32,000 nt of DNA from Geotalea daltonii FRC-32 (GCF_000022265.1 NC_011979.1:270001-302000); one strand, 5' to 3'. Positions 828 to 18,595 are shown, counted from the first letter of the stretch. Notes: a model not told the origin generated them from the sequence alone. Made by a program: numbers and translations.

Positions 828-2480
828 ATGATAAAAAATGGTTTTACTGAATGGCCGGAGGATTTCGCGCAAGCGTACCGGGATGCCGGTTACTGGCGAG
901 ACCAGACAATCGGCGAGGTGCTTGCAGAACGCTTCGCACGTTTCGCGGACAGAACCGCACTTATCGCTGAAGACGGGGCACACTATACCTATGCCGATCT
1001 GGACCGGCTTTCCACCCGCCTTGCCCTGCATTTCAAAAACCTGGGACTCCAACCATACGATCGGGTCATCCACCAGATCCCCAACGGCCCGGTAAGCGTC
1101 CTGACTTTTCTCGGGCTGCTCAAGGCGGGCGCCGTACCGGTGATGACACTGCCCCCCCACCGGGAAGCGGAGATCGGCCACTTTGCCCGGCTTTCCGGGG
1201 CGCGTGGCTACGCCATAGCCAGCCAGGTGCGTGAGTTCGACTTCCAGGCCCTGGCCGGCACGGTGCAGGAACAGAATCCGTCCCTGGAATTTGTACTGGT
1301 AACCGGCGGCATGCCCGGTCCCGGCTATCAGTCCATCGATGCCATGCTGCTCGACCCCATCGAGGAACGGGCAGGCAGTACCAGCCTGCCGCGACCCGAT
1401 CCGGATTTTCCTGCCGTGCTGCTCCTGTCCGGTGGGACCACCGGCATTCCAAAGCTCATACCGAGAACCCACAACGACTATGCGTACAACTTTCTTCGCT
1501 GCGCCGAAGTATGCGGGCTTGACGGGGAGACCTCCGTACTCGTCGCCGTGCCGCAGGCACACAATTTTGCCCTTGCCTGCCCGGGGCTGTTGGGCACCCT
1601 TGCCACCGGCGGCTGCGAACTGCTGTCGGCAAACACCGCTACCGAACAGCTCATGAAGCTGATAGAGACGCACCGGTTGACCCATTTCATTGCCGTGCCG
1701 ACGATGATTCTCGGCCTCCTCGACCATCCCGAGCGTGGCAAGTACGACCTCTCCTCCCTGCGGATGATCCTCACCGGCGGCTCGAAACTCAACCCGGAAG
1801 TGGCCCTGCGTCTGCGTCCGGAACTGGGATGTGACGTCCTGCAGGTCCTGGGCATGGCAGAAGGACCTCTCTATTGGACACGTCTGGAAGACCCGGACGA
1901 CGTGCGGCTGCATACCCAGGGCCGCCCCCAGTCCCCCGGCGACGAATTCCGTATCGTTGACCCGGAGAGCGGCAAAGAGGTGGCGCCGGGAGAAGTGGGA
2001 GAGCTCTGGTGCCGAGGACCCCACACGATCCGTGGCTATTATCGCGCCGACGAGCACAATACGCGGGCCTTCAGCTCCGACGGATTCTACAAGTCGGGAG
2101 ACCTGGTGCGGCTGCACGAAAGCGGCAACATCGTTGTCGAGGGACGGAACAAGGACTGCATCAACCGGGGAGGGGAAAAGATCAGCGCCGAAGAGATCGA
2201 AAACCATCTCATCGCCCATGGGTCGGTGCTCAATTGTGCGGTCGTCGCCATGCCGGATGCCATTTTCGGTGAAAAATGCTGTGCCTTTGTCGTCCCCGCT
2301 CCGGGCGCTTCCCTGACCCTGGAGGGTCTGTGCGACTTTCTCATCAAGGAAAGAAAGATCGCCCGGTTCAAGCTTCCGGAGCGGTTGGAAACCTTGGACG
2401 CCCTTCCCCTGACAAACGTGGGCAAGATCAATAAAAAAGCCCTGCGTGAGATCATCGTGCAACTTCAGCAGGCTGCGTGA
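828..2480 (+). CDS. Aryl-acid adenylating enzyme / aryl-CoA ligase, EntE/DhbE (2,3-dihydroxybenzoate/salicylate-AMP ligase) family
   Basis: Start chosen at the ATG at 828 (MIKNGFTEWPEDFAQAYRDAGYW), 8 nt after AAAGGAGGA (811-819). End-to-end resemblance to E. coli EntE as I remember it: WPEEFA..YR..GYW N-terminus, SGGTTGIPKLIPRTHNDY, QVLGMAEG, TIRGYY, INRGGEKISAEEIE, LPLTNVGKINKK. Confidence 0.9.
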   Translation: MIKNGFTEWPEDFAQAYRDAGYWRDQTIGEVLAERFARFADRTALIAEDGAHYTYADLDRLSTRLALHFKNLGLQPYDRVIHQIPNGPVSVLTFLGLLKAGAVPVMTLPPHREAEIGHFARLSGARGYAIASQVREFDFQALAGTVQEQNPSLEFVLVTGGMPGPGYQSIDAMLLDPIEERAGSTSLPRPDPDFPAVLLLSGGTTGIPKLIPRTHNDYAYNFLRCAEVCGLDGETSVLVAVPQAHNFALACPGLLGTLATGGCELLSANTATEQLMKLIETHRLTHFIAVPTMILGLLDHPERGKYDLSSLRMILTGGSKLNPEVALRLRPELGCDVLQVLGMAEGPLYWTRLEDPDDVRLHTQGRPQSPGDEFRIVDPESGKEVAPGEVGELWCRGPHTIRGYYRADEHNTRAFSSDGFYKSGDLVRLHESGNIVVEGRNKDCINRGGEKISAEEIENHLIAHGSVLNCAVVAMPDAIFGEKCCAFVVPAPGASLTLEGLCDFLIKERKIARFKLPERLETLDALPLTNVGKINKKALREIIVQLQQAA

Positions 2481-2632
2481 TCATCTGCTGGCATGCCCGC
2501 AAAGAGGGCATGGCCGGACGTTGCAGCATTTTTTGTACATAGATCGCTTTCCGGCGATTCGGACCACCTTCAGACCATGGGGCGGTCGGCACATGAAAAA
2601 ACCGATGCCGCCCGGAATTTGAGAGGATTAAC

Positions 2633-4009
2633 ATGACAACAAACGCGCAGACAAAACCCTCCGTAAGCTTTACCCAATGGTGCGACAGCTTGTCGTTCAA
2701 CAGGTTTCACGCCATGGTCATGGCACTCGCCGCCCTGATCCTGGTCTTCGACGGTTACGACGCCCAGATCATCGCCTATGTCATGCCGCAACTGGTCAAG
2801 GAATGGCACCTGACCCCGGTGGAGGCTGGTTCCATGGCCTCCTACGGTTTCATCGGTCTCATGATCGGCGCGGCCGGCTTCGGCACCTTCGCCGACAGGC
2901 TTGGCCGCAAGAAGGGAGTGATGATCGCCTTGGTCGTATTCTCCGTCTTCAGCGGGGCGGCTTACTGGGCGCCCAATTTCAAGGTGTTCTGTCTCCTTCG
3001 TTTTCTCGCCGGCATCGGCATGGGGGGCGCGATGCCCCTGACCATTACGCTGGTGACGGAATTCGCCCCTGCCAAGGCACGGGCCAAGGCGGTAAGCGCC
3101 ATGTTTGCCGGATTTACCCTGGGATGGGGCGTTGCGGCACTGGTGGCCATGGTCGGCATACCTGCCTTGGGATGGCGGATGGTGCTTCTTTTCGGTTTTC
3201 TGCCGGTGCTTATTCTTCCCCTTCTGCAGAAGGCCCTGCCGGAGTCGGTGCGCTTCCTGGCATCGAAAGGGCGTCACGAGGAGGCGATACTTGAAATACA
3301 GCGGATGGAAAAAGCCGCAGGACTGCCACCGGCTGCGTGGACCAAGGAGTCGTTTCAAACCGGACCGGTGGAGCCAGGCAGCAGCCTGACCCAGCTTTTC
3401 TCTCCCGGATTTTCATTCATGACACCGCTCATCTGGGCAACTTACTTCCTGAACCTCCTGGTGGTCTACGGGCTGGCTACCTGGCTCCCATCGCTTCTCG
3501 TCAAGGCAGGGTTTTCCCTGGTCAAGAGTTACAGTTTCGGCATGGTCCAGGCAATAGGCGCTTCCCTCGGCGGCTTTCTTCTCGGCTGGATGATGGACCG
3601 ATTCGGCCGGAAGAGCGCTCTGATCTTTGCCTACATGGCCGGAGGGGTTGTCGTAGCCCTGTTCGGCACAGTATCGAGCAATACGGCCTTGTATATCATC
3701 GGCGCAGCAACGGGTGTCTTCGTCATCGGAGCGCAAATAGCCCAACATGTGGTGACCGGCGAACTCTATCCGACCAGCATCCGTTCCACCGGGGTTGGCT
3801 ATGCCCTCACCGCGGGCCGTCTCGGTTCGATTGCAGGCCCCTTGCTGGGCGGAGCGCTCCAGATGGCCGGCGTTACCTTCAGCCAATACTTCCTGATCTT
3901 CGCGGTTCCCAGCTTCCTGTGCGCCGGACTGGTCTATTTGTATCGGGTCAATGTGAAAGACGAAGGACTTGAAACAGTCCATGAAAGACTGGTATCCGTT
4001 GAGGAGTAG
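2633..4009 (+). CDS. MFS transporter, aromatic acid:H+ symporter (AAHS; PcaK/BenK-like) family
   Basis: 458 aa and highly hydrophobic, with about 12 predicted TM stretches. DGYD motif in TM1, GRKKG loop 2-3 motif, GAGAGGA SD 7 nt upstream. Confidence 0.85.
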   Translation: MTTNAQTKPSVSFTQWCDSLSFNRFHAMVMALAALILVFDGYDAQIIAYVMPQLVKEWHLTPVEAGSMASYGFIGLMIGAAGFGTFADRLGRKKGVMIALVVFSVFSGAAYWAPNFKVFCLLRFLAGIGMGGAMPLTITLVTEFAPAKARAKAVSAMFAGFTLGWGVAALVAMVGIPALGWRMVLLFGFLPVLILPLLQKALPESVRFLASKGRHEEAILEIQRMEKAAGLPPAAWTKESFQTGPVEPGSSLTQLFSPGFSFMTPLIWATYFLNLLVVYGLATWLPSLLVKAGFSLVKSYSFGMVQAIGASLGGFLLGWMMDRFGRKSALIFAYMAGGVVVALFGTVSSNTALYIIGAATGVFVIGAQIAQHVVTGELYPTSIRSTGVGYALTAGRLGSIAGPLLGGALQMAGVTFSQYFLIFAVPSFLCAGLVYLYRVNVKDEGLETVHERLVSVEE

Positions 4010-4151
4010 GTAATCGCTTCATTGCCACCTGTCCTCGGCTGTGCCGGGGGCAGGTGCACCTGTCGCGGAAACAGCGGCGGCCCCGCCTGGGCTGCTATAG
4101 TGGCCTGTAATTCTTGCCCTCCTGCTGTTGTGTTCCACAAAAACAGTGGCG

Positions 4152-4166
4152 TTTCATGTGACGAAA
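4152..4166. promoter_or_regulatory. Operator-like 15-bp near-palindrome TTTCAT-GTG-ACGAAA
   Basis: Matches the pattern TTYCRY-N3-RYGRAA that is also present at 5246, 19619 and 19793. It lies in the 210-bp spacer upstream of the first iclR gene. Confidence 0.3.
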
Positions 4167-4219
4167 TGCTATTACAAGGGGAAACGCCGGGTGACTGGCA
4201 GGAAGGTCGACAGGTGCCG

Positions 4220-5023
4220 ATGACCGAAAACAACTCCCCCACCAAGATCAAGGAAGACGAAAAATACAACATTCGCGCCATCGAGCGCGCCCTTTCAGTG
4301 CTGGAAGCCTTTTCCATCGAGCGCCGCAAGCTCTCCCTCGATGAACTCACCAAGCTGATCGGGCTTTCCAAACCCACCGTCTTTCGCATCCTTTCTACAT
4401 TGCAGAGCAGGAAATTTATTTATCTGGACAAAGGCGACGGGCGCTATCGGCTGGGCTCTGTTTTTCTCACCCTCGCCTCTGCGGTCCACGGTTCATCCGG
4501 TCTCGGCGCCATTGCCCGCCCGCATCTGACCACATTGCGCAATTCCACACAGGCGACGGTCCTTCTTGGCGCCCTCCTGGAGGATCACCTTGTCTATCTG
4601 GACAAGACCGAGGGACGCGGGCCGGTCCGCCTGGCCAACGACATCGGCTGGCGGCGCGATCCTGCCCATTACGGCATGCTGGGCATGACGCTCATGGCCT
4701 TCCTTGATCCCGCCGAGGCCGAACGTCTGCTGGATGAGTTTCCCCTTGCTCCGTATACCGAAAAATCCCTGAATGATCGGCTGCTCTTCCTTAAACGCCT
4801 TGATGACATACGGCGGCTCGGTTATGCCCTGGAGTTCGAGGAGGCGATAGATGGCGTCTGGGGCGTCGCCGCTCCGGTTTTGAATGCGGCAGGAGAGATC
4901 ATCGCTGCCGTCGGGGCTGCCCTGTCCATGTCTGCCTGCAGCGACGAACGCATTGCCGATACCATTAACAGCGTCACCGCCTGTGCCGGGGCTATTTCTT
5001 CGGATCTTGGCCACAGGCGATAA
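4220..5023 (+). CDS. IclR-family transcriptional regulator
   Basis: Start taken at MTENNSPTKIKEDEKYNIRAIERALSVLEAF. The upstream 66 codons of ORF 4022..5023 are Cys/Gly/Pro-rich and non-protein-like. N-terminal wHTH (LSLDELTKLIGLSKPTVFRILSTL) plus an IclR effector domain. An alternative start at 4166 is possible. Confidence 0.85.
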   Translation: MTENNSPTKIKEDEKYNIRAIERALSVLEAFSIERRKLSLDELTKLIGLSKPTVFRILSTLQSRKFIYLDKGDGRYRLGSVFLTLASAVHGSSGLGAIARPHLTTLRNSTQATVLLGALLEDHLVYLDKTEGRGPVRLANDIGWRRDPAHYGMLGMTLMAFLDPAEAERLLDEFPLAPYTEKSLNDRLLFLKRLDDIRRLGYALEFEEAIDGVWGVAAPVLNAAGEIIAAVGAALSMSACSDERIADTINSVTACAGAISSDLGHRR

Positions 5024-5195
5024 GGCCTCCCCTCACAGCGGTGTCCCGGCAGAGACTGCCTCACCCCTTCCCCTTATTTCTCACTTGTATCCCAGTTGCA
5101 AAAAGTATTGAACAGCTCTTGCCCTTTGTTGTGCACGTGGATTTGCCCCCCTGTTCTTCCCCTCCACCAAAAATATTCAATAGAACATTATTTTA

Positions 5196-5223
5196 TTGAC
5201 AACTTCGTGGCAGCGTGGATAAT
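5196..5223 (+). promoter_or_regulatory. Sigma-70-like promoter candidate (TTGACA-16 nt-GATAAT)
   Basis: TTGACA at 5196-5201 and GATAAT at 5218-5223, in an AT-rich 410-bp spacer upstream of the first bamB-like gene. A second perfect TATAAT sits at 5241-5246. Confidence 0.4.
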
Positions 5224-5245
5224 AATATCAAAAAATAAAATATAA

Positions 5246-5260
5246 TTTCACACAGTGAAA
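5246..5260. promoter_or_regulatory. Perfect palindrome TTTCAC-ACA-GTGAAA, operator candidate
   Basis: 6-bp perfect inverted arms with a 3-nt spacer, immediately downstream of the -10 candidates. Same half-site family as 4152, 19619 and 19793. Confidence 0.4.
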
Positions 5261-5436
5261 TAATGTGGTGCGGCAGTACCGGGAAGATGATGGTAACGAT
5301 ATTGGAGAAAAAGAAATCGCTGTTTTACCGCAGGAAGTACTGACGCAAGAACAGTTTTTTTGCCGAAATAATCGTATTGAAGTACCGGGTTGCATATTTA
5401 GATGGAGAAACTGGAAACCCGGGAAGGGGTAAGCTA

Positions 5437-7419
5437 ATGAAGTACGCAGAGACAGGCTTTGCATTGGAAGTCGATCTGACTAGAGGAAATATCGAAAAAG
5501 TCCCCACCGACCCGAAGATGACCGGGCTCCATTTGGGTGGGGACGGTGTTGCCGCTGCCATTCTTTGGGAACGGGTGCCACCTGAGGTTGCCCCACAATC
5601 ACCCGCCAACCTGCTCATTTTCAGCGCCGGTCTTCTGGCAGGCACACCGATCCCCGGCGCCAATCGTACCTGTGTCAGCAGCATCAGCCTTCAATCGAAC
5701 CTCCTCGTAAATGCGAACTTTGAAGGGTTTTTCGCGCCGGAGCTGAAACATGCGGGCTATGACAGGGTCGTCATCCGCGGCAAGTCGACCAGCTTAGTTT
5801 ATTTGTGGATTCACGACGACAAGGTGGAGATCTGTGATGCCAGCCATCTCCAGGGGAAGAGCGCCATGGAGACCACAGCCATTCTCCGCAAAGAGTTGAA
5901 GGACCCCAACGTCCAGGTGGCCACCATTGGCGTGGCCGGGGAAAACAAGGTCTCCCAGGCGAGCATTGAACATGCCAACAGCAGTGCTTCCCAAGGGCTT
6001 GGCGTGATAATGGGGGATAAGGGCCTGAAGGCCATAGCGGTCCGCGGCACAAAGGATCTGGGCATTGCCCGGCCGGATGAGCTTTTCGCACGTTGCAACG
6101 CGCTCTATGGGGAGATCTACGATAACCCGTCCTGTGGCGATCTCCTGTTGAGCGAGCACGATAATGCCTGGCATGTGGCCAACCTCCCCTGGACCGCAGC
6201 AGGCGAACGGGTCAAGGGGTTCTGGACGCCGGAGCTTGGACAGGAATGGGGAGTGCGTGTCGAACGGGAAGAGATCGGCTACCAGTGGGAAAACTATAGT
6301 CAGGAAATGGAAGAGGTACGAGAGACGGTTGTCGAGGAAAGCAAGCTAGTGCGCGGCACCGGCTGCTACAACTGCCCCAAGAATTGCCATAAGGTCCTGT
6401 CCCTGCCGGGCGAGCGCCAGTATTTTCTCAAGTCCTACAGCAGGCATGTTTACGCCATGGCTGCCTATGGAGACCTGAAGCTCAACTACGACGTTCTTTA
6501 CGCCATGCAGGATTTTGGTCTGGATGAAAACGCCATGGTACAACTGTTCGCCTTCGTCCAGGACCTGCATCAAGCCGGCATTTTCACAGACAGTGATTTG
6601 CCCGATTTTCCGGCCGATCCTATTGGCCGATACCTCTACATACTGGAAAAGGTAGCAAACCGTCAGGGTATCGGAGCTATTCTTGCCGAGGGTCTTTGCC
6701 AAGCAGCAGGCCAGATTGGCAAGGGTGCGGAAGCATATGTCCGGGGAGTGAAAAAGACAGCACAGCTCCCCCTTAGGTGGAAAACTGCCAATTACGCATC
6801 TTTCCTCATGTATGCCGCCGGGGACAAGATGGATATCAGCCAGGTTGAAGGCTCCTTCCCTCAATTGCCGATACCCGACAGGAAAGAGAGGGAGGCGTTT
6901 GTCAAGGTCTGGGATGCAGCTCCCCAAAGGTTCAAGGAGTGGTTCCTGGATTGGGAGCCGGAGCAGCAGTTTTCTATTGAGGCCGCGGCAGAGATTGTTG
7001 GCTGGAATGAGGCCATGCATTATGCGGATGACATCCTGGGGATCTGTCCCCTGCTGTCGTCCTTCAGGGGCCAGTTTGGCGGCAAGCCTCCCTATCACCT
7101 GAACAACCTGCCGCAGCTCGTTTCGCTGGCGACCGGCATCGAGTTGGATGTGGCCGGCCTGCTGGAAATATCCCGCCGAAACCGGCAGCTGATCAGGGCC
7201 TTAAATGCCGGAAGAGGTCAGAGACGGGCCGATGACGAATTCCCTGCAGAACTCTGGGAGAACAGGGATACCGCAATGGAGCAGCAACACCTTGACGCGT
7301 ATTACTCATTCATGGGATGGACTGCCGAAGGGATCCCGACCCGAGAGACATTGACCGGTGCGGGACTGGACCACGTAAGCAAGGTTTTGATGGCACGAGG
7401 GCTCCTGACGGGAGAATAG
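5437..7419 (+). CDS. BamB-like tungsten/pterin aldehyde:ferredoxin-oxidoreductase-family protein, divergent paralog 1 (Ser at the position where paralog 2 has Cys)
   Basis: Start at MKYAETGF (GGAAGGGG SD upstream), which matches the MRYAETGF start of paralog 2. CYNCPKNC (CxxCxxxC) cluster motif and a later conserved Cys (DDILGICPLLSSF). FLKSYSRH aligns with FLKCFNKL of paralog 2. About 25 extra residues precede the Cys motif. Confidence 0.88.
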   Translation: MKYAETGFALEVDLTRGNIEKVPTDPKMTGLHLGGDGVAAAILWERVPPEVAPQSPANLLIFSAGLLAGTPIPGANRTCVSSISLQSNLLVNANFEGFFAPELKHAGYDRVVIRGKSTSLVYLWIHDDKVEICDASHLQGKSAMETTAILRKELKDPNVQVATIGVAGENKVSQASIEHANSSASQGLGVIMGDKGLKAIAVRGTKDLGIARPDELFARCNALYGEIYDNPSCGDLLLSEHDNAWHVANLPWTAAGERVKGFWTPELGQEWGVRVEREEIGYQWENYSQEMEEVRETVVEESKLVRGTGCYNCPKNCHKVLSLPGERQYFLKSYSRHVYAMAAYGDLKLNYDVLYAMQDFGLDENAMVQLFAFVQDLHQAGIFTDSDLPDFPADPIGRYLYILEKVANRQGIGAILAEGLCQAAGQIGKGAEAYVRGVKKTAQLPLRWKTANYASFLMYAAGDKMDISQVEGSFPQLPIPDRKEREAFVKVWDAAPQRFKEWFLDWEPEQQFSIEAAAEIVGWNEAMHYADDILGICPLLSSFRGQFGGKPPYHLNNLPQLVSLATGIELDVAGLLEISRRNRQLIRALNAGRGQRRADDEFPAELWENRDTAMEQQHLDAYYSFMGWTAEGIPTRETLTGAGLDHVSKVLMARGLLTGE

Positions 7420-7470
7420 GGGCAGACCCATGTGTTTGCCCAACCCATGGCGCACACGCGGGTGCGCCCC
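7419..7470. repeat. REP-like double hairpin in the bamB'-bamB spacer
   Basis: GGGCAGAC-ccatgt-GTTTGCCC (7420-7441) and GGCGCAC-acgcgg-GTGCGCC (7449-7468). This resembles the GC-rich extragenic palindromes common in deltaproteobacterial-type genomes. Confidence 0.4.
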
Positions 7471-7537
7471 TACACGACAAAAGGACATTCTGAACGCGGC
7501 GTCGAGTGCAGACATCAACAAACGGAAGAGGTAGACA

Positions 7538-9451: not shown

Positions 9452-9507
9452 GGGGCAGGGAGATCCCGGCAGTAAAATGTAGAACTACAGTCAAGAGGAT
9501 AGCAGCC

Positions 9508-11216: not shown

Positions 11217-11240
11217 AAAAATTCATGGAGGCTGACTTTT

Positions 11241-11317
11241 CCCCCTCACCCTCTCCCACTAGGAGGAAAGGGGATTTGAGCCCCTCTTTCTTCGATGGGA
11301 GTGGCCGGGGGAGGGTG
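11241..11317. repeat. Compound imperfect palindrome (REP-like) just after bamD
   Basis: Outer arms CACCCTCTCCCACT / GGGAGTGG..GGGGGAGGGTG and inner arms GAAAGGGG / CCCCTCTTTC, a C-run/G-run hairpin architecture. Confidence 0.45.
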
Positions 11318-11371
11318 TACGGTGTGGCTTCTAAACCCAAATAGCAAATTAAGGTTCTTCAGACATTTTCA

Positions 11372-11551
11372 GGGAAAGCAGTCGTGGCATCGGGAGAGAG
11401 TGACGAGCTACAGCGGCGAGCGGACACCCGCCGCATGTGGAACGGAGGCAGCCTATCAAATTTCAGCATCGTGTGCCCTCATGAGGACGGCACCGCAAGG
11501 TCCGCAGCTGTGGCGACAGAGCGAACGGACGATGTCGCGACTGCCTTTTTT
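11372..11551 (+). ncRNA. Candidate structured RNA / structured 5' leader of bamE (unknown family)
   Basis: A 15-bp closing helix pairs 11378-11392 with 11530-11544 and includes 2 G-U pairs that pair only on the + strand. Nested inside are an 8-bp helix (11407-11414 / 11507-11514), a GC hairpin (11416-11434, ACAC loop), a 5-bp helix (11436-11440 / 11502-11506) and a hairpin (11473-11493). A T6 tract at 11546-11551 follows the closing helix. No convincing ORF or SD. Confidence 0.25.
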
Positions 11552-11604
11552 CACAGAATTACCGGATGAACCAAACTAAAGGGATGCTTACGGTGGGAAA
11601 TGAC

Positions 11605-14600
11605 ATGGCACAAAAAAAATTCATAGACGTTCTCGTGGTCGGCGGCGGTATCAGCGGTATCCAGGCTGCACTCGATCTTGCCAATAGCGGCTTCAAGGTC
11701 TATCTGGTCGATAAGGCGCCGGCCATCGGCGGCAAGATGTCGCAGCTGGACAAGACCTTCCCCTCCAACGACTGCTCCATGTGCATCGAATCTCCCAAGT
11801 TCAACGAATGCAGCAGGCATCCCAACATCGAGATCCTGACCTATACGGCGGTGGAGAGCGTCAAGGGAAAGGCGGGGAACTTCAAGGTCACCCTGGTGAA
11901 GAAGCCGCGCTACGTTGTGGAGGAGAAGTGCACGGGGTGCAACCTCTGCGTGGAATACTGCCCGGCCAAGGTCCCTGACAGGTACAACCAGAATATTTCC
12001 GACAACAAGGCCATCCATATCCATTTTTCCCAGGCACTGCCGCTGATTCCGTATGTGGACCCGGAGGCATGTCTTTATCTTAAAGACGGCTCGTGCACCA
12101 TTTGCGTGGGGGTTTGCAAACCAAACGCCATCGACCTCCATCAGGAAGAAGAGCTGATGGAAGTGAACGCAGGGGCCATCGTCCTCGCTCCCGGCTTCGA
12201 GACCTTTGACCCCAAGCTCAGGAGCGACTACGGTTACGGTGTCTTCGAGAATGTGGTGACCAGCCTGGACTACGAGCGGATTCTCAGTTCCACCGGTCCC
12301 TACGAGGGGACGATCAGCCGTCCCTCGGACAAGAAACATCCCCACAAAATCGCCTGGATCCAGTGTGTCGGCTCTCGCCAGGTGAATCCAGAGGGGGGGA
12401 ACAGCTACTGCTCGGCGGTCTGCTGTGCCTATACCCAGAAGCAGGTGATTCTCACCAAAGATCATGACCCCGGCATGGAAGCCACCATCTTCCACAACGA
12501 CATCCGCGCCTTCGGCAAGGAATTCGAGCGTTTCTACCAGCGGGCCGAAAAGCTCTCCGACGTGCGCTTCATCAGAAGCTACGTCTCCATCGGCAGGGAG
12601 AACCCGGAAACCAGGAACGTCAGCATCCGCTATTCCACCTTCGACCAGGGGGTGAAGGAAGAAGAATTCGATATGGTGGTCCTCTCGGTTGGCCTCAACC
12701 CGCCGGCCGACGTCCAGACCATGGCCACCACCTTCGGTATCGAGCTCAACGAGTACGGCTTCTGCAAAACCAGGCCCGGCAACGCCATTGAAACCACCCG
12801 TCCCGGCATTTATGTGAGCGGCGCCTTTACCGGCCCGGCCGATATTCCAGAATCGGTGGTGACTGCCGGCGGCGCCAATGCCCTGTGCAGCGAACTCCTC
12901 TCCTATCGGCGCGGCGACCTTTCCCGGGAGCGGGTATATCCACCGGAGAAAGATGTAGCTAAAGAAGAGATCAGGATCGGCGTGGTCGTCTGCCTGTGCG
13001 GCGCCAACATCGGCCGGGTGGTGGATACCCCCGCCGTGGTCGAATATGCCGCCGGTCTCCCCAACGTGGTCTACGCCGAGCGCAACATGTTTGCCTGTTC
13101 CACGGAAAACGCCCAGCTCATAGCGGATGCCATCGTCGAGCACAACCTGAACCGCGTGGTGCTGGCAGCCTGCACCCCCCGGACCCACGAACCGCTCTTT
13201 CGGGATACCTGCCGGGAAGCGGGGTTGAACCAGTACTATTTCGAATTCGCCAACATCCGGGAGCACTGCTCCTGGGTCCACTCCAAGGACAAGGAAGGCG
13301 CCACCGAAAAGGCCAAGGACATCGTCCGCATGGCCGTGGCCAGGGCAGCCCACCTGGAGCCGCTGCAGGAGTTCCAGCTGCCGGTGAACAAGACTGCCCT
13401 GGTGGTTGGGGGTGGCATTGCCGGCATGACCAGCGCCCTGAGCATGGCCAACATCGGTTTCCAGGTGCATCTGGTTGAGAAGGAATCCGACTTGGGGGGA
13501 ATGGCCCGCCGGCTCCACTACACTTTGGACGGGCTTGAGGTTCAGCCCCTTTTGGACGACCTGGTCCGCAAGGTATACCGCCACCCGCTGATTCACATCT
13601 CCCTTGACGCCACCATCACTGACGTATCCGGCTATGTGGGAAACTTTGTCACCACTGTCATCTCCGAAGGACGTCGCCGGGAGATCGCCCATGGCGCCGC
13701 CATCCTCGCCACCGGCGCCGATGAATACAAGCCCACGGAATACCTCTACGGGCAGAACGACCAGGTTCTTACGTCCCTTGAACTGGAGGAGCGGATCGCC
13801 AAGGGGGACGAACAGACCCTGGGTGCCCAGACCCTGGTCATGATCCAGTGTGTCGGCTGCCGGGAAGAATGGAAGAACTACTGCAGCCGTGTCTGCTGCA
13901 GCCAGTCCATCAAGAACGCCCTGAAGCTCAAGGAACTCAACCCGGAGATGGAGATCTACGTCATCTACCGGGACATGAGGACCTACGGATTCAGGGAAGA
14001 CTACTACCGGGAAGCCGCCAACAAAGACGTGAAATTCATCCGCTATGAGCCCGCCGGCAAACCCCTGGTTGAAGCAGCCACGGAGGGGGGGCGCCCCATC
14101 ATTCGGGTAACCGTACCGGACCCGGTTCTCGGCCAGAAGCTGGCCATAGATGCCAATCTGCTGGTCCTTGCCGCTGCCGTTGTCCCGTCGGCCGCGAGCC
14201 AGGAGATGGCCAAGCTGTTCAAGGTGGCCATGAACACGGACGGCTTCTTTCAGGAGGCCCATGTCAAGCTGCGGCCGGTCGATTTCGGCGCCGACGGCAT
14301 CTTCCTCTGCGGCCTTGCCCACTATCCGAAACATATCACGGAGACCATCAGCCAGGCATACGGTGCTGCCGGCCGCACGGTCAACCTGCTCACCCGCGAC
14401 TCGGTCACCGCCTCCGGTGCGGTCTGCGATGTGACCAGGAGCAACTGCGTGGCGTGCGCGGCCTGCATTACCGCCTGTAAATATGATGCCATAGAACTGG
14501 TCGACACACCTTTTGGCAAGGAGGCCACGGTGAATCCGGCCCTGTGCAAGGGAGACGGCTTGTGCAACACCAAGTGCCCGACCGGTGCCATCTACCTGAA

Positions 14601-14661
14601 GCACTACACGAACCAGGAGATTTGGTCCCAGATCGATGCGGCGACGCCGGGGTGGGAGTGA
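11605..14661 (+). CDS. bamE: BamE-type subunit: two fused HdrA-like FAD/FeS modules plus ferredoxin domains
   Basis: Two dinucleotide-binding motifs (VVGGGISGIQAALDLA, VVGGGIAGMTSALSMA). HdrA-like Cys motifs (SYCSAVCCAY, NYCSRVCCSQ). 4Fe-4S motifs (CTGCNLCVEYCP, CVACAACITAC, CKGDGLCNTKCP). Start chosen at MAQKKFIDVLVVGGG; upstream in-frame ATGs at 11566 and 11584 lack a well-spaced SD. No in-frame TGA. Confidence 0.9.
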   Translation: MAQKKFIDVLVVGGGISGIQAALDLANSGFKVYLVDKAPAIGGKMSQLDKTFPSNDCSMCIESPKFNECSRHPNIEILTYTAVESVKGKAGNFKVTLVKKPRYVVEEKCTGCNLCVEYCPAKVPDRYNQNISDNKAIHIHFSQALPLIPYVDPEACLYLKDGSCTICVGVCKPNAIDLHQEEELMEVNAGAIVLAPGFETFDPKLRSDYGYGVFENVVTSLDYERILSSTGPYEGTISRPSDKKHPHKIAWIQCVGSRQVNPEGGNSYCSAVCCAYTQKQVILTKDHDPGMEATIFHNDIRAFGKEFERFYQRAEKLSDVRFIRSYVSIGRENPETRNVSIRYSTFDQGVKEEEFDMVVLSVGLNPPADVQTMATTFGIELNEYGFCKTRPGNAIETTRPGIYVSGAFTGPADIPESVVTAGGANALCSELLSYRRGDLSRERVYPPEKDVAKEEIRIGVVVCLCGANIGRVVDTPAVVEYAAGLPNVVYAERNMFACSTENAQLIADAIVEHNLNRVVLAACTPRTHEPLFRDTCREAGLNQYYFEFANIREHCSWVHSKDKEGATEKAKDIVRMAVARAAHLEPLQEFQLPVNKTALVVGGGIAGMTSALSMANIGFQVHLVEKESDLGGMARRLHYTLDGLEVQPLLDDLVRKVYRHPLIHISLDATITDVSGYVGNFVTTVISEGRRREIAHGAAILATGADEYKPTEYLYGQNDQVLTSLELEERIAKGDEQTLGAQTLVMIQCVGCREEWKNYCSRVCCSQSIKNALKLKELNPEMEIYVIYRDMRTYGFREDYYREAANKDVKFIRYEPAGKPLVEAATEGGRPIIRVTVPDPVLGQKLAIDANLLVLAAAVVPSAASQEMAKLFKVAMNTDGFFQEAHVKLRPVDFGADGIFLCGLAHYPKHITETISQAYGAAGRTVNLLTRDSVTASGAVCDVTRSNCVACAACITACKYDAIELVDTPFGKEATVNPALCKGDGLCNTKCPTGAIYLKHYTNQEIWSQIDAATPGWE

Positions 14662-14685
14662 GAACAAATAACCAAGATGTAAAGT

Positions 14686-14765
14686 CCCCCTTTGAGAAAG
14701 GGGGATTTAGGGGGATTTGATTCATATTGCCCAAATCCCCCCAACCCCCCTTTTATAAAGGGGGG
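14686..14765. repeat. Cluster of three C-run/G-run hairpins (REP-like) between bamE and bamF
   Basis: CCCCCTTT-gag-AAAGGGGG (14686-14704). GGGGGATTT-14 nt-AAATCCCCC (14710-14741). CCCCCCTTT-tat-AAAGGGGGG (14745-14765). Tandem GGGGGATTTA / GGGGGATTTG. The core GGGGGATT(T)GA recurs at 27741 and, inverted, at 31044. Confidence 0.55.
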
Positions 14766-14792
14766 AGCTATTGTTTAGAAAGGAGAACGAGC

Positions 14793-15560
14793 ATGACAGC
14801 AGCCCTTGAATTTAAACCGCGGGTCGTCGGTTTTTTGTGCACGTGGTGAGCGTACGGCGCTGCCGACCTGGCTGGAGTTTCCAGACTGCAATATACAACT
14901 GAAACAAAGATCATCCGCGTGATGTGCTCGGGCAGGGTCGACCTGGACTTTGTGCTGCGCGCCTTTTCCCGGGGTGCCGACGGGGTATTCATTGGTGGCT
15001 GCTGGCTTGGCGAGTGCCATTATGTCACCGAAGGCAATTACGATGCCCTGAGCATGATGCACCTGGCCAAGAGAGTCCTCGAAGAGGTAGGAATCAATCC
15101 CGACCGGCTGCGTCTCGAATGGGTTTCCGCCTCAGAGGGGATGCGCTACGCCGAGGTGATGAACGACTTCGGTCGCAGACTGAAGGAACTGGGGCCGATC
15201 GGTTCCAGCGAGGGCATAGAAAAAGAGGCCCTGAAGCTGAAATTTGCCGCAGTGAAGAAGATACTCCCCTTCCTCAAGCTGGTTGAACGGGAGCGGTTGC
15301 GGGTACGGTTTAAGACGGAAGAAGAATATACGAAATTCTTCAGTAGCCCGGAGGTGGATGCCCTGATCCGTGGGGTGATCGCCGAAAATCTGGCCATCAG
15401 CCAGATTCTCACGCTCCTGGGGAGAAAACCGCTGACGACCAGGCAAATTGCCGAGGTGTTGAGGCTGGAGCCGGCGGAGGTGGCAAGATGCCTCAATGTT
15501 TCATCGCAACAGGGCTTGATCCGCTACAACGAAACCGAGAAACGCTATGCCGTCGCCTGA
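14793..15560 (+). CDS. bamF: BamF-type MvhD/FlpD-like subunit, selenocysteine-containing (TGA at 14847-14849 read as Sec)
   Basis: The ATG at 14793 (AGGAGAA SD at about 14781-14787) is in frame with ORF 14919..15560. Read-through gives MTAALEFKPRVVGFLCTW-U-AYGAADLAGVSRLQYTTETKIIRVMCSGRVD, which matches the MvhD signature CxWCxYxGADxAG with Sec at the second Cys. Sec in BamF is reported for G. metallireducens (from memory). Confidence 0.8.
14855..14886 (+). promoter_or_regulatory. Candidate SECIS hairpin(s) downstream of the bamF UGA
   Basis: CGGC-gcu-GCCG (14855-14865) starts 6 nt after the UGA. GGCUGGA-guu-UCCAGAC (14870-14886) has one G/A mismatch and a GUU apical loop. I cannot tell which one, if either, is functional. 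Confidence 0.3.
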
Positions 15561-15602
15561 TCCGACCGGTGACGGGGCTAAATGAGAAAAGAGGGCACGA
15601 CT

Positions 15603-16055
15603 ATGGACAGGGACAGGATTGACCAGATTATCGACACCCATGGCTGCAAAGCCAGTTCGCTCATTCAGATATTGATTGCCATCCAGAGTGAAAACCACTG
15701 GCTCCCCAAGGAAGTTCTGGAACGGGTCAGCGAGCGACTGAACGTACCCATGAATCAGATCCAGCATATCACCACCTTTTACAAGTCGTTCAGCCTGGTC
15801 CCCAAGGGGCGTCACGAGGTCCATGTCTGCATGGGAACCGCTTGCCATGTCCGTGGTGCCCAGGGTGTTCTCGATACCGTTGAAGATGTGACCGGTATCA
15901 AGCCGGGAGAGACCGACGTCGATCTCAAGTTCAGCCTGGAAACCGTCAACTGCATCGGCTGCTGTGCCCTCGGACCGGTAATGGTGGTGGATGGCGATTA
16001 CCACGGTAACCTGGCCGCAACCCAGGTGGAAGACGTGTTGAAAACCTACGAGTAA
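15603..16055 (+). CDS. bamG: BamG-type NuoE/HoxE-like [2Fe-2S] subunit
   Basis: CMGTACHVRGA...CIGCCALGP thioredoxin-like 2Fe-2S motif. Start at MDRDRIDQ is preceded by AAGAGGG; an in-frame ATG at 15582 is an alternative. Confidence 0.85.
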   Translation: MDRDRIDQIIDTHGCKASSLIQILIAIQSENHWLPKEVLERVSERLNVPMNQIQHITTFYKSFSLVPKGRHEVHVCMGTACHVRGAQGVLDTVEDVTGIKPGETDVDLKFSLETVNCIGCCALGPVMVVDGDYHGNLAATQVEDVLKTYE

Positions 16056-16064
16056 GGGAAGGCC

Positions 16065-17978
16065 ATGGCAAAGATAAATTCGACTGTCGAGTTCGAAGCA
16101 TTGAGGAAGGAAATCCTGTCGTCCAGGGATCCGAACCGCCCCTGCATTGCCGTATGCACCGGCTCCGGTTGCCTTGCCCTCGGCGCCGCCAAACTGGTGG
16201 CCGCCTTGAAAAGCGAAATCAAGGAGCAGGGGCTGGAACAGAGGATCGAAGTAAGGGAAACCGGTTGTCCCGGCTTCTGCGAGCGGGGTCCCCTGATCGT
16301 CATCTACCCGGAGGAGACCTGCTATCTCAAGGTGCAGCCGACTGACGCCAAAGAGGTCATCGCCAGCGTCATGGAGAAGAAGATCATCGACCGGCTGCTC
16401 TATGTGGATCAGGTGACCGGTGAGCGGGTCGTCCATGAGATGGATATCCCCTTTTACAAGAATCAGTTGCGGCTTTTGATCGGCAACAACATCAAGCTCG
16501 ACCCGACCAGCATCGACGACTACATCGCCATCGGCGGTTACACTGCCTTGGAAAAAGCTGTCTGCCAGATGAAGCCGGAGCAGGTGGTGGGGCTGGTGAA
16601 GGAATCGGGGCTTCGGGGGCGCGGTGGTGGCGGCTTTCCCTCGGGGAACAAGTGGGAATTCACCCGCAATGCACCTGATCCGGTGAAATACGTGGTTGTC
16701 AACGCCGACGAGGGTGACCCCGGGGCATTCATGGACCGGGCGCTGTTGGAGGGGAGCCCCCATGCGGTCCTGGAAGGGCTCATTATCGGCGCCTATGCCA
16801 TCGGCGCCCATGAAGGTTTTCTCTACGTGCGTCAGGAATACCCCCTGGCCGTGCACAATATCACCCTCGCCATCCAGAAGGCTGAGGAATATGGCTTCCT
16901 GGGGAAAAATATCCTGGGATCGGGCTTCGATTTCACGGTGGAGGTGGCCCAAGGGGCAGGCGCCTTTGTCTGCGGCGAAGAAACAGCCTTGATCCGCTCC
17001 CTGGAGGGGAAGACGGGGGAGCCGAAACCGAGACCCCCTTTTCCTGCCGTGAGGGGGCTGTGGAACAAACCGACCAACATCAACAACGTGGAGACCTGGG
17101 CCAATATTCCTCTTATTATCAACAAGGGCCCGGCCGCCTTCGCTTCCGTAGGCACCGGGGGGAGCAAAGGCACCAAAATATTCTCCCTGGTGGGCAAGGT
17201 CAAGAACACCGGGCTGGTTGAAGTGCCCATGGGGATAACCCTGCGGGACATCGTCTACAAGATCGGCGGCGGCATTCCCGGAGAGAAGAAGTTCAAGGCG
17301 GTGCAGACCGGTGGCCCGGCGGGGGGGTGCATGCCCGAATCGCTCCTGGACATGGAGGTCGATTTCGACCAGCTCACCAAGGCCGGCTCCATGATGGGGT
17401 CCGGCGGCATGATCGTCCTCGATGAAGAGACCTGCATGGTGGATTTCGCCAGGTTTTTCCTCTCCTTTCTGGCAGAAGAGTCATGCGGCAAATGTGTCCC
17501 CTGCCGCGAAGGCATTCAACAGATGCTTGCCATCCTGAATGACCTGACCCATGGGAAAGGGAAAAAGGGTGACCTGGAGCTTCTGGAGCAGCTTACCGAG
17601 GTTTCCAGCGCCTCGTTGTGTGCCCTGGGCAAGGGTGCACCGAACCCGGTGCTGAGCACCCTGAAACATTTCCGGGATGAATATCAGGCCCACATGGAGG
17701 GGAAATGCCCTGCCTTCACCTGCAAGAGCCTCTTCTCCTACTATATTGAGCCGGAGAAGTGCCAGGCATGCACGAGCTGCGGCAAAAAATGCCCGGCAGG
17801 GGCGATTGAAGGGGGAAAGAACCAGATCCACATGGTCGACCAGGCAAAATGCACCAAGTGCGGGGCCTGCCTGCAGGCCTGCCCCCCCCGCTTCGCAGCG
17901 GTGACGCGGATACTGGGCGAGGTAGTCCCACCCCCATTGCCGGAAGAGGCGAGAACAATAGTCAGGGGGAGCAAATAG
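16065..17978 (+). CDS. bamH: BamH-type NuoF/HoxF-like FMN/NAD(P)H subunit with N-terminal 2Fe-2S domain and C-terminal 2x[4Fe-4S] domain
   Basis: GRGGGGFPSGNKW (NuoF nucleotide/FMN motif), ESCGKCVPCREG (N3-type cluster), C-terminal CQACTSCGKKCP and CTKCGACLQACP. AAGGGAAGG SD. Confidence 0.9.
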   Translation: MAKINSTVEFEALRKEILSSRDPNRPCIAVCTGSGCLALGAAKLVAALKSEIKEQGLEQRIEVRETGCPGFCERGPLIVIYPEETCYLKVQPTDAKEVIASVMEKKIIDRLLYVDQVTGERVVHEMDIPFYKNQLRLLIGNNIKLDPTSIDDYIAIGGYTALEKAVCQMKPEQVVGLVKESGLRGRGGGGFPSGNKWEFTRNAPDPVKYVVVNADEGDPGAFMDRALLEGSPHAVLEGLIIGAYAIGAHEGFLYVRQEYPLAVHNITLAIQKAEEYGFLGKNILGSGFDFTVEVAQGAGAFVCGEETALIRSLEGKTGEPKPRPPFPAVRGLWNKPTNINNVETWANIPLIINKGPAAFASVGTGGSKGTKIFSLVGKVKNTGLVEVPMGITLRDIVYKIGGGIPGEKKFKAVQTGGPAGGCMPESLLDMEVDFDQLTKAGSMMGSGGMIVLDEETCMVDFARFFLSFLAEESCGKCVPCREGIQQMLAILNDLTHGKGKKGDLELLEQLTEVSSASLCALGKGAPNPVLSTLKHFRDEYQAHMEGKCPAFTCKSLFSYYIEPEKCQACTSCGKKCPAGAIEGGKNQIHMVDQAKCTKCGACLQACPPRFAAVTRILGEVVPPPLPEEARTIVRGSK

Positions 17979-17980
17979 CC

Positions 17981-18595
17981 ATGAGCGAACTGGTCTTACA
18001 AATAGATGGCAGAGAGGTTACGGTAAAGGAAGGTGCGACCATTCTCGAAGCAGCCGAGAGCGTGGGAATAGCCATTCCCACCCTTTGTCACCACCACAAG
18101 CTGGAACCCTATGGGGGGTGCCGGGTCTGCTCAGTGGAGGTGGAAGCCAACGGCAGGACGATGGTCGTTGCCGCCTGCACCTATCCGGCCGAAAAAAATG
18201 TCGTCGTGCGCACCCGGAGCGAAAAGCTTTCCAGGATTCGCCAGGCGCTGGTGGAGATGATGCTGGCCCATGCACCCGATTCGGAAAAACTGGTGGCGTT
18301 GGCTGAGGAGTATGGCGCAGACCGGGATCGGTTCAAAAGAAACCAGTCCTTCTGCATTCATTGCGGCCTTTGTGTACGCTACTGCACCGAGGTGAAGAAG
18401 AAAAATGCCCTGGGGTTCATCGACCGGGGCGCCAAAAAGAGGATCTGCTTCATTCCGAAAATAGCGGCCGCCGAATGCTGGAAGTGCAGGGAATGTTTTC
18501 CCCTCTGCCCCACCTCTGCGCTCCAGGCTGCCTTCGTTCTCACTGAAGGGATGACCGCGGCTGTACCGACTGAAGCGGCCGAATCCGGACGGTAA
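17981..18595 (+). CDS. bamI: BamI-type NuoG N-terminal-like FeS subunit
   Basis: Start at MSELVLQIDGREVTVKEGATILEAA, 2 nt after the bamH stop, with a GGGGGA SD. The 44-codon upstream extension of ORF 17849 overlaps bamH. 2Fe-2S ferredoxin fold (CHHHKLEPYGGCRVC) and CIHCGLCVRYC. Confidence 0.85.
   Translation: MSELVLQIDGREVTVKEGATILEAAESVGIAIPTLCHHHKLEPYGGCRVCSVEVEANGRTMVVAACTYPAEKNVVVRTRSEKLSRIRQALVEMMLAHAPDSEKLVALAEEYGADRDRFKRNQSFCIHCGLCVRYCTEVKKKNALGFIDRGAKKRICFIPKIAAAECWKCRECFPLCPTSALQAAFVLTEGMTAAVPTEAAESGR

Follow-up and report, generated by a model that had tools for sequence, protein, structure and literature searches.

Which aromatic acid is handled by a locus in which an aryl-acid ligase of the EntE/DhbE type lies next to the genes of a class II benzoyl-CoA-reductase-like system? 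The question is raised by a stretch of the chromosome of the iron-reducing bacterium Geotalea daltonii FRC-32 (formerly Geobacter daltonii; NC_011979.1, positions 270001 to 302000), called the window below, which comprises 32,000 nucleotides and contains Geob_0224 to Geob_0235 and genes of the lower benzoyl coenzyme A (benzoyl-CoA) pathway. Its gene content was established by listing the open reading frames (ORFs) and by Pfam and NCBIfam scans. The genes for the ligase (Geob_0224), a major facilitator superfamily (MFS) transporter, an IclR regulator, two BamB subunits, and BamC to BamI are all located on the plus strand, in the same orientation, between positions 828 and 18595; the genes, order, orientation, and coordinates given in an initial annotation of this DNA were borne out, with minor corrections of the starts of the IclR, BamF, and BamI genes. 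In the reading that we prefer, to which we assign a probability of roughly 45%, the locus comprises two adjacent and separately regulated modules, the first of which (module A) would activate an ortho-substituted benzoate and the second of which (module B) would reduce its aryl-CoA.

The product of Geob_0224 is named "2,3-dihydroxybenzoate--coenzyme A ligase, putative" in GenBank. It belongs to the ANL superfamily of adenylate-forming enzymes (PF00501, 239 bits; PF13193, 51 bits; motifs SGGTTGxPK and GEKI present), and its best NCBIfam model, matched over the whole length, was TIGR02275 (DHB_AMP_lig), with a score of 551 bits that does not reach the curated cutoff of 723.55. The next-best family scored 306 bits, and the cutoffs of PRK10946 (498 bits; cutoff, 783) and of the benzoate-CoA ligase family TIGR02262 (175 bits; cutoff, 375.25) were not reached either. 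On these profile scores, Geob_0224 classifies with the EntE/DhbE-type enzymes and not with the benzoate-CoA ligases, as the initial annotation had stated. The best solved relatives were McbA (5WM2, deposited as "salicylate-AMP ligase"; 568 bits), followed by CahJ, DhbE, and PchD. McbA differs from Geob_0224 in its role, which is the joining of an aryl acid to an amine in secondary metabolism, in having the motif GLLNYTR where Geob_0224 has GPLYWTR, and in its unrelated genomic context. Geob_0224 is collinear over its full length with the salicylate enzymes PchD, MbtA, and YbtE and with the 2,3-dihydroxybenzoate enzymes DhbE, EntE, and BasE (E values of 1e-117 to 1e-145), and it contains the adenylation core motifs. 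Unlike both groups, it has no carrier-protein or nonribosomal peptide synthetase (NRPS) partner, scores below the TIGR02275 cutoff, belongs to a clade with the motif GPL(F/Y)WTR instead of GL(V/L/I)(N/C)YTR, and occurs in a catabolic context under predicted sigma-54 control.

The pocket residues of the ligase were compared with the DhbE-type specificity code by alignment to solved structures, a check that the initial annotation had suggested. The pocket motifs are HNFALACPG and GMAEGPLYWTR in Geob_0224, HNYPLSSPG and GMAEGLVNYTR in DhbE, and HNFTLCCPG and GLICYTR in PchD. At the positions of DhbE Tyr236, Ser240, and Val337, which reportedly contact the substrate and form the 2,3-dihydroxybenzoate pocket (May et al. 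2002), Geob_0224 has Phe, Cys, and Leu, and PchD has Phe, Cys, and Ile. The Asn that binds the ortho-hydroxyl group is kept in Geob_0224, and its Phe/Cys/Leu triad matches the pattern of the salicylate enzymes. This triad, together with the conserved Asn, argues against 2,3-dihydroxybenzoate and favors an acid with a single ortho substituent. Judged by these residues, the pocket is of the salicylate type rather than the 2,3-dihydroxybenzoate type, and the substrate in the GenBank name is probably wrong. We lean, by a modest degree, toward a non-benzoate, ortho-substituted aryl acid as the substrate; salicylate specifically is a tentative assignment that falls short of even odds, and anthranilate is a possible alternative. 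The substituted benzoate envisaged by the initial annotation was supported as far as salicylate-type acids are concerned, by the pocket and by a 66%-identical ligase encoded beside a salicylyl-CoA-5-hydroxylase-like gene (see below), but 2,3-dihydroxybenzoate, which it had also entertained, is disfavored by the pocket. By analogy with the neighboring gene products, which act on CoA thioesters, CoA would be the acceptor of the acyl-adenylate.

Benzoate itself is provided for elsewhere in the strain. FRC-32 carries genes designated benK (Geob_0193), bamY (Geob_0200), bamA (Geob_0211), and bamB1 to bamI1 (Geob_0212 to Geob_0219), in addition to bamB3 (Geob_0227), bamB4 (Geob_0228), and bamF2 (Geob_0232) of the window; an oah-bamB-bamC-I cluster was reported in this strain by Butler et al. 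2007, and Geob_0200 to Geob_0235 have been treated as benzoate-degradation clusters in published work. Since benK, bamY, and the canonical bamA/bamB1-I cluster lie just 5′ of the window genes, the latter are not the single housekeeping bam locus of a benzoate degrader, an outcome that would have spoken against the initial annotation. Geob_0224 and Geob_0225 are a second uptake and activation pair beside an already published second bam cluster. Geob_0224 was also suspected of being BamY, because BamY is only 19% identical to Thauera aromatica BclA (Butler et al. 2007) and because a BamVW-like sigma-54 two-component system adjoins Geob_0224. This candidate was ruled out: the BamY of Geobacter metallireducens (Gmet_2143, 523 amino acids) is a "Benzoate-CoA ligase family" protein, and its FRC-32 orthologue is located seven genes 5′ of bamA (Butler et al., supplement); the bamY of the strain is Geob_0200.

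Module A and its control region contain the following features.
1 to 524, minus strand: sensor histidine kinase, N-terminal 174 codons (RsbRD_N-PAS-HisKA type), divergent from the ligase gene.
578 to 592, 639 to 654, and 671 to 687, plus strand: three TGAAA-N(5-6)-TTYCC-like boxes, candidate sigma-54 activator sites.
728 to 743, plus strand: sigma-54 (-24/-12) promoter-like site TGGCATgatgcTTGCT, 100 nucleotides 5′ of the ligase ATG.
828 to 2480, plus strand: EntE/DhbE-clade aryl-acid ligase, Geob_0224 (ACM18596), with AMP-binding and AMP-binding_C domains and a GGAGG ribosome-binding site before ATG 828.
2633 to 4009, plus strand: MFS transporter of the aromatic-acid:H+ symporter type, Geob_0225 (ACM18597), with TIGR00895 as the best family.

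A protein database search with Geob_0224 returned many matches that were 60 to 95% identical, the named sources including Geotalea toluenoxydans, Desulfatiglans anilini, a Desulfomonilaceae bacterium, Desulfoprunum sp., Thermodesulfobacteriota metagenome-assembled genomes (MAGs), and a Burkholderiales MAG. Gene neighborhoods were compared for orthologues with at least 59% identity, and twelve orthologue loci (loci are designated by L numbers) were scored with a tblastn panel. A profile search of genome contigs with the ligase alignment retrieved mostly siderophore and other EntE homologues; the best 80 loci were used for a census of pocket motifs and neighbors, and three close-clade loci were found among the 80 matches listed. 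Window domain scans and the gene tables of the orthologue loci compared revealed no carrier protein, isochorismatase, isochorismate synthase, NRPS, or condensation domain.

The neighbors that were found point to an aryl-CoA product. In sulfate-reducer locus L084 (7784 to 9742) and in D. anilini L001 (1 to 1005), the ligase orthologue adjoins a gene for an OYE/FAD flavoenzyme (the D. anilini copy being 68% identical to that of L084), the best solved relative of which is 2-naphthoyl-CoA reductase (NCR; 440 bits). In these sulfate reducers, the genes for the flavoenzyme, the ligase orthologue, and a Liv-type ABC transporter are arranged like an operon, and the flavoenzyme is a candidate for the ATP-independent reduction of the same aryl-CoA. 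This pairing of the ligase with another aryl-CoA reductase homologue in other anaerobes makes a reductive step after activation look like the rule. At the Burkholderiales locus L085, the gene for a 66%-identical ligase is followed by that for a monooxygenase corresponding to the N-terminal half of "bifunctional salicylyl-CoA 5-hydroxylase/oxidoreductase" (409 bits) and then by that for an OYE reductase. Ligase homologues with the Phe/Cys/Leu pocket, among them more distant ones in Streptomyces, also adjoin salicylyl-CoA-5-hydroxylase-like genes (L047, L076, and L083). The hydroxylase family also includes 2-aminobenzoyl-CoA monooxygenase/reductase, and membership in this family points to an ortho-substituted benzoyl-CoA. 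Taken together, these neighborhoods suggest that the ligase clade makes aryl-CoA thioesters that are subsequently attacked on the ring. Another EntE-like protein of D. anilini, annotated as "2,3-dihydroxybenzoate-AMP ligase" (H567DRAFT_02058), is encoded in a phenol gene cluster and is phenol induced, its function being stated as not known (PMC6114531); it is a further sign that EntE-type ligases serve anaerobic aromatic catabolism.

The ligase gene is accompanied by what appears to be its own sensory system. Genes for a divergent sensor kinase and a sigma-54 response regulator lie beside the ligase orthologue at 10 of the 12 scored loci. The kinase fragment of the window (1 to 524) is 89% identical to the N terminus of the G. 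toluenoxydans kinase encoded at the same position, and its sigma-54 response-regulator partner is located beyond the window start. The sigma-54 site at positions 728 to 743 is the only match to TGGCAC-N5-TTGCW in the window, with 0.11 expected by chance; it is kept at -99/-100 in L090, L091, L003, and L087 and at other distances in L001, L002, L004, and L086. The TGAAA boxes, which have counterparts at equivalent positions 5′ of the ligase orthologues in L090, L091, L003, L087, and L089, may bind the sigma-54 activator.

The transporter Geob_0225 has the MFS_1 and Sugar_tr Pfam domains and scored 342.7 bits against its best family, TIGR00895 (cutoff of 418.55, not reached), followed by MhpT (251 bits) and PcaK (229 bits). 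An MFS orthologue (68% identical) is encoded directly 3′ of the ligase orthologue in Desulfoprunum, and the same order is found in G. toluenoxydans and contig L091. The transporter at ligase loci varies, being of the MFS type in Geotalea, Desulfoprunum, and L091 and otherwise a TRAP binding protein or a Liv-type ABC system. A 3-hydroxyacyl-CoA-dehydrogenase-like gene (79 to 100% identical) is present at 6 of the 12 loci and a PaaY-like gene at 4 of the 12. The former encodes 311 amino acids (L090, 5576 to 6511, minus strand; orthologues in L003, L086, L087, L089, and L091, with 79 to 90% identity among them), and the G. daltonii copy lies just 5′ of the window; the gene is more conserved than the accompanying ligase and is often paired with one for a PaaY-like hexapeptide protein.

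Module B extends from position 4220 to 18595, preceded by a possible regulatory site, and contains the following features.
4151 to 4167, plus strand: degenerate copy of the operator palindrome, GTTTCATGTGACGAAAT, 53 nucleotides 5′ of iclR; candidate autoregulation site.
4220 to 5023, plus strand: IclR-family regulator, Geob_0226, with HTH_IclR and IclR_C domains above Pfam cutoffs.
5196 to 5223, plus strand: sigma-70 promoter-like site TTGACA-16-GATAAT, matching at 11 of 12 positions, 5′ of bamB-a.
5245 to 5261, plus strand: perfect 7-3-7 palindrome ATTTCACACAGTGAAAT, just 3′ of the -10 box; candidate IclR operator.
5437 to 7419, plus strand: BamB-a (bamB3, Geob_0227), AOR-family tungstopterin/[4Fe-4S] subunit paralogue.
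7538 to 9451, plus strand: BamB-b (bamB4, Geob_0228), BamB paralogue keeping Cys322.
9508 to 10044, plus strand: BamC, three-cluster polyferredoxin subunit, full-length match to 4Z3W chain E (231 bits).
10044 to 11216, plus strand: BamD, HdrD-like, with CCG domains, from the Pfam and NCBIfam scans.
11566 to 14661, plus strand: BamE, double HdrA-like flavoprotein with ferredoxin domains (HdrA2 model, 938 bits).
14793 to 15560, plus strand: BamF (bamF2, Geob_0232), MvhD/FlpD-like by domain scan, with an in-frame TGA at 14847 to 14849.
15582 to 16055, plus strand: BamG, NuoE/HoxE-like [2Fe-2S] protein, from the Pfam and NCBIfam scans.
16065 to 17978, plus strand: BamH, NuoF-like FMN/NAD-binding subunit with extra ferredoxin domains, by domain scans.
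17981 to 18595, plus strand: BamI, NuoG N-terminal-like [2Fe-2S]/[4Fe-4S] protein, by domain scans.

GenBank lists putative benzoyl-CoA reductase subunits of the window under accessions ACM18600 and ACM18601. The IclR gene most likely starts at 4220 and not at 4022, which gives a protein of 267 amino acids, the same length as the orthologues; the corrected starts of the BamF and BamI genes are 14793 and 17981, respectively.

The catalytic part of module B is unusual in that two tandem bamB genes accompany one bamC, neither of them canonical, which distinguishes it from the BamBCDEFGHI system of G. metallireducens (BamBC structures 4Z3W to 4Z40). BamB-a and BamB-b scored 621 and 797 bits, respectively, against G. 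metallireducens BamB (PDB 4Z3W), to which they are 49% and 58 to 59% identical, with 55 to 56% identity to each other; canonical BamB orthologues from other orders (D. multivorans BamB2 and D. anilini BamB) are 79 to 80% identical to the same protein. Both window proteins thus fall outside the group of canonical orthologues, for which identity across orders is about 80%, the canonical copy of the strain being Geob_0212. Both have AFOR_N and AFOR_C domains, and the four [4Fe-4S] cysteines (Cys299, Cys302, Cys306, and Cys534 in the G. metallireducens numbering) are invariant. The impression recorded in the initial annotation that both differ from canonical BamB in the segment before the CxxCxxxC motif was correct, this segment containing an insertion of about 25 residues in BamB-a and deletions in BamB-b.

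A more important difference concerns the tungsten ligand. Cys322, located just after the CxxCxxxC motif, is replaced by Ser333 in BamB-a (codon 6433 to 6435) and kept as Cys309 in BamB-b (codon 8462 to 8464). BamB-b also keeps His255, Glu257, and His260, as in G. metallireducens, with Glu251 falling within a deleted stretch; BamB-a keeps His255 and His260 and has Asn at position 257, and Glu251 falls within a deleted stretch here too. Among the zinc and proton-relay residues, only His260 is constant in the a-type clade, His255 being variable and Glu257 not being kept. Position 322 is occupied by Ser in four, Asn in one, and Cys in one of the a proteins from the six loci described below, and by Ser in 47, Asn in 31, and Cys in 53 aligned clusters of BamB3 homologues. 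The occurrence of Ser or Asn at this position across the a-type clade is an exception to the published claim of Cys322 conservation among all predicted BamBs.

The pair is part of a recurrent unit comprising an IclR gene, an a-type BamB (656 to 661 amino acids), a b-type BamB (637 to 658 amino acids), and BamC or a BamC-like protein, which was found at the six loci examined (the window, G. toluenoxydans, metagenome contigs L091 and L092, Geobacter argillaceus, and Syntrophus gentianae) and is followed by bamD-I at four of them. The b proteins of the tandem pairs are 79 to 95% identical to one another and retain Cys322, His255, Glu257, and His260. In L092 (10001 to 21986), the unit, in which the a-type BamB has Cys, is followed not by bamD-I but by genes for a methyltransferase, a radical SAM protein, a short AMP-binding protein, and molybdopterin oxidoreductases; this 276-kb contig also carries a gene for a 78%-identical ligase, at a distance of about 155 kb. 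In the solved structure, BamBC forms a (BamBC)2 heterotetramer, each BamC being bound to one BamB; as a single bamC here accompanies two bamB genes, a heteromeric complex of the composition BamB-a/BamC/BamC/BamB-b readily suggests itself as a possibility. It is improbable, in our estimation, that BamB-a/BamB-b/BamC constitutes a heteromeric tungsten enzyme that owes a different chemistry to the Cys-less subunit and reduces an ortho-substituted aryl-CoA such as salicylyl-CoA.

An IclR gene is located 5′ of the tandem BamB pair at all six loci, and this gene, together with the palindromic candidate operator, sets the window operon apart from that of G. metallireducens. The window protein scored 49.3 bits for HTH_IclR and 100.8 bits for IclR_C, and no equivalog model was reached. 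A TTGACA...TATAAT site equivalent to that at 5196 to 5223 is present in L090, L091, and L092, each of which has a related palindrome at the same place 5′ of the a gene. A search of the window with the palindrome pattern returned two sites, versus 0.39 expected, the copy at 4151 to 4167 having two mismatches. The predicted operators are consistent with repression by IclR of both the a/b operon and its own gene.

The electron module conforms to that of G. metallireducens in the order of the C to I genes, the set of domains, the predicted selenocysteine in BamF, and the full-length match of BamC: the polyferredoxin BamC is followed by HdrD-like BamD, double HdrA-like BamE, MvhD-like BamF, and NuoEFG-like BamG, BamH, and BamI. 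Over 251 residues, window BamE shares 70% identity with the BamE of cluster 1 in G. toluenoxydans, and the cluster-2 E to I subunits are 65 to 75% identical to those of cluster 1, indicating that the two sets are old paralogues. The BamF TGA (14847 to 14849) occurs in the motif FLCTW-U-AYGAADLAG and has a counterpart in G. toluenoxydans BamF1; because it implies a predicted selenocysteine, ORF callers shorten BamF to 14919 to 15560. Long noncoding spacers are present at 11217 to 11565 and 14680 to 14775, the bamD-bamE interval being 350 nucleotides long versus about 130 in G. toluenoxydans. They hold G/C-rich palindromic elements such as CCCCCTTTGAGAAAGGGGGATTTAGGGGGATTT, and a similar element is located 5′ of bamB-a in G. 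toluenoxydans. An Rfam scan of the window, spacers included, returned no match. A selenocysteine-extended bamE in the 350-nucleotide gap after bamD was considered and ruled out, since the frame is full of stop codons.

Our preferred reading combines these elements as follows. In module A (1 to 4009, with the kinase and sigma-54 regulator upstream), the kinase would sense the acid and the sigma-54 activator would switch on the promoter at 728 to 743, leading to production of the ligase and the aromatic-acid:H+ symporter. The symporter would import the acid, and the ligase would adenylate this ortho-substituted benzoate, most likely salicylate (2-hydroxybenzoate) and possibly anthranilate, and transfer it to CoA, the pair being additional to the benzoate-specific BenK and BamY. 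In module B, the IclR-type repressor would bind the palindrome at 5245 to 5261, at the sigma-70 promoter of the second class II benzoyl-CoA-reductase-like operon, the catalytic part of which would be the tandem BamB-a and BamB-b sharing one BamC and driven by the electron-bifurcating module BamDEFGHI. The aryl-CoA from module A would then be reduced by module B. This might be a reductive dehydroxylation or deamination that yields benzoyl-CoA. For salicylyl-CoA, two outcomes make chemical sense, namely, reductive dehydroxylation to benzoyl-CoA and a two-electron reduction of the ring, the latter of which would give a role to the conserved upstream 3-hydroxyacyl-CoA-dehydrogenase-like gene. The link between the ligase and the a/b cluster is functionally plausible; we hold it doubtful, as a separate proposition, that module B uses the aryl-CoA made by module A.

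That ligase and reductase form one pathway, as the initial annotation proposed, is favored by the recurrence of their junction: the order of kinase and regulator, ligase and MFS, and IclR-BamBa-BamBb-BamC is kept in G. toluenoxydans and on metagenome contig L091, where the ligase is 75% and BamB-a 64% identical and bamC is followed by unrelated genes, without bamD-I. A number of observations weigh on the other side. The link is one of adjacency only and is lineage specific, and the modules also occur apart. In G. argillaceus, cluster-1 bamI is directly followed by IclR-BamBa-BamBb-bamC-H with no ligase module in between, so that this module looks like an insertion in the Geotalea lineage; in S. 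gentianae, the IclR gene, the tandem BamB pair, and bamC-I have no ligase gene nearby. Bam genes were found at 1 of the 12 scored ligase-orthologue loci (G. toluenoxydans), contig L091 being the only other case, and a number of close ligase orthologues lack bam genes within a distance of 10 kb. Window scans revealed no operator palindrome 5′ of the ligase gene and no sigma-54 site 5′ of bamB-a, and the lack of a shared site indicates separate regulatory circuits. With respect to the substrate, McbA has the same HNFALACPG motif as Geob_0224 yet acts on beta-carboline acids, so that the pocket code is not fully diagnostic; CahJ has a 2,3-dihydroxybenzoate-like pocket motif and activates salicylate; and the GPL(F/Y)W motif is specific to the ligase clade, with no characterized counterpart in the pocket-motif census. 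In the literature searched, we found no report of growth of G. daltonii on salicylate, and cells grown on benzoate transcribe bamB3 and bamB4 (PMC13119186).

Much of this evidence fits a different view, in which the two modules are independent neighbors: the a/b cluster would be a second, isofunctional benzoyl-CoA reductase for other metal, selenium, or growth conditions, and the ligase and transporter genes a separate insertion, with their product handled elsewhere. We regard this as a serious possibility, though one to which we give less than even credence. It would account for the widespread occurrence of the a/b cluster without the ligase, for the retention of all catalytic residues in BamB-b, for the old paralogy of the E to I subunits (as opposed to a recent specialization), for the separate circuits, and for the pairing of the ligase with an NCR-like flavoenzyme in other anaerobes; in addition to being expressed on benzoate, bamB3 and bamB4 respond to Se, Mo, and W (PMC13119186). 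It leaves unaccounted for the conservation, despite 75% ligase identity and the lack of bamD-I, of the junction on L091, the divergence of both BamBs from the canonical group (49% and 58 to 59% versus 79 to 80%), and the loss of Cys322 from BamB-a.

Another version, in which everything serves benzoate, with Geob_0224 as a second benzoate or broad-range aryl-CoA ligase and Geob_0225 as a second benzoate importer, would make the locus a redundancy within the benzoate island, in line with the published treatment of Geob_0200 to Geob_0235. The strain has a dedicated BenK/BamY pair, the ligase scores less than half the cutoff of the benzoate-CoA ligase model (175 versus 375 bits), its conserved Asn and Phe/Cys/Leu pocket match enzymes for ortho-hydroxy acids, and its module has a sensor system of its own, leaving this version a slim chance even though the closest solved relative, McbA, accepts many aryl acids. 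The least probable of the alternatives, to which we attach very little weight, is that Geob_0224 is not a CoA ligase but loads a siderophore aryl carrier protein or acts as an McbA-like ATP-dependent amide-bond synthetase. Its top curated family is indeed (2,3-dihydroxybenzoyl)adenylate synthase, and McbA (568 bits) is its best PDB match, but the family score of 551 bits fails to reach the curated cutoff of 723.55, neither the window nor the gene tables of the orthologue loci compared include a carrier protein, isochorismate synthase, or condensation domain, and the neighbors encode CoA-thioester enzymes and aryl-CoA reductase or hydroxylase homologues.

Known systems offer partial parallels for the two-module reading. 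Streptomyces sp. WA46 reportedly degrades salicylate by a CoA-dependent pathway comprising a salicylyl-AMP ligase, a salicylyl-CoA synthetase, and a salicylyl-CoA 5-hydroxylase (SdgA/B/C). The likeness lies in an EntE-like ligase feeding salicylate into a CoA-thioester route; that pathway is oxygen dependent, whereas in the window the ligase adjoins an anaerobic tungsten reductase and no hydroxylase is present. In the 1990s, biochemical work outlined anaerobic routes for ortho-substituted benzoates, and we know of no gene that has been assigned to them. Bonting and Fuchs are said to have described, in 1996, a salicylate-CoA ligase and a dehydroxylating salicylyl-CoA reductase forming benzoyl-CoA in a denitrifier, a pathway that, to our knowledge, has no assigned genes either. 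The proposed logic is the same, in that the acid is first activated with CoA and then channeled by a reduction into the benzoyl-CoA pathway. There is no sequence for comparison; unlike the denitrifier, G. daltonii is an obligate anaerobe with an ATP-independent reductase. As for NCR (6QKG), the ligase clade has a flavoenzyme of this kind as its other partner in sulfate reducers; no such enzyme is encoded in the window, where the role would fall to BamB-a and BamB-b, if to any protein.

The genome, the duplication of the bam cluster, and the annotator's guess of a dihydroxybenzoate-CoA ligase are already known. In the literature searched, we found no discussion of Geob_0224 to Geob_0226 and no gene assignment for salicylyl-CoA or 2-hydroxybenzoyl-CoA in anaerobes; the D. 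multivorans proteogenomics paper, which included 2-hydroxybenzoate-grown cells, names no specific ligase or reductase in its text or supplement. Nor did we find there the view that the ligase represents a conserved catabolic clade that is under predicted sigma-54 control, has a salicylate-type pocket, and is paired with aryl-CoA reductase or hydroxylase homologues, or the view that the second bam cluster is of a widespread a/b type under putative IclR control, with an a subunit lacking the tungsten-ligating Cys.

The locus and its relatives, with an EntE-clade ligase that has its own importer and sensor, provide candidate genes for anaerobic degradation of salicylate or anthranilate and two alternative candidates for the reductase partner, the BamB-a/b pair and the NCR-like flavoenzyme. 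If a heteromeric BamB-a/b/C enzyme did act on salicylyl-CoA, the missing genes of anaerobic salicylate degradation would be identified and a second functional class of BamB defined. The existence of a large BamB-like clade without the tungsten-ligating Cys, always beside a Cys-bearing partner, raises the question of the part played by the second subunit, and environmental counts of bamB may lump functionally different clades.

The genes located 3′ of bamI include those for a glutaryl-CoA dehydrogenase of the non-decarboxylating type (ACM18609), a second IclR regulator on the minus strand, a carboxyltransferase, an OadA-like biotin protein, a malic enzyme/PTA fusion, a methyltransferase, an enoyl-CoA hydratase, and a thiolase. 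The second IclR gene (18711 to 19571, minus strand) is divergent from the glutaryl-CoA dehydrogenase operon, and its product best matches the PcaR/PcaU/PobR subfamily (138 bits); the bamB-a operator palindrome was not found in its intergenic region. The OadA-like gene (23229 to 25304; 691 amino acids) contains a tandem duplication (24762 to 25025 and 25035 to 25298; 72% nucleotide identity) that results in two biotinyl carrier domains in this oxaloacetate-decarboxylase-alpha-like protein. Finally, a direct repeat (28644 to 28698 and 28731 to 28785; 80% identical, with a spacing of 87 bp) doubles the start region, ribosome-binding site included, of the enoyl-CoA hydratase gene, for which ATG 28668 and ATG 28755 are both possible in-frame starts.

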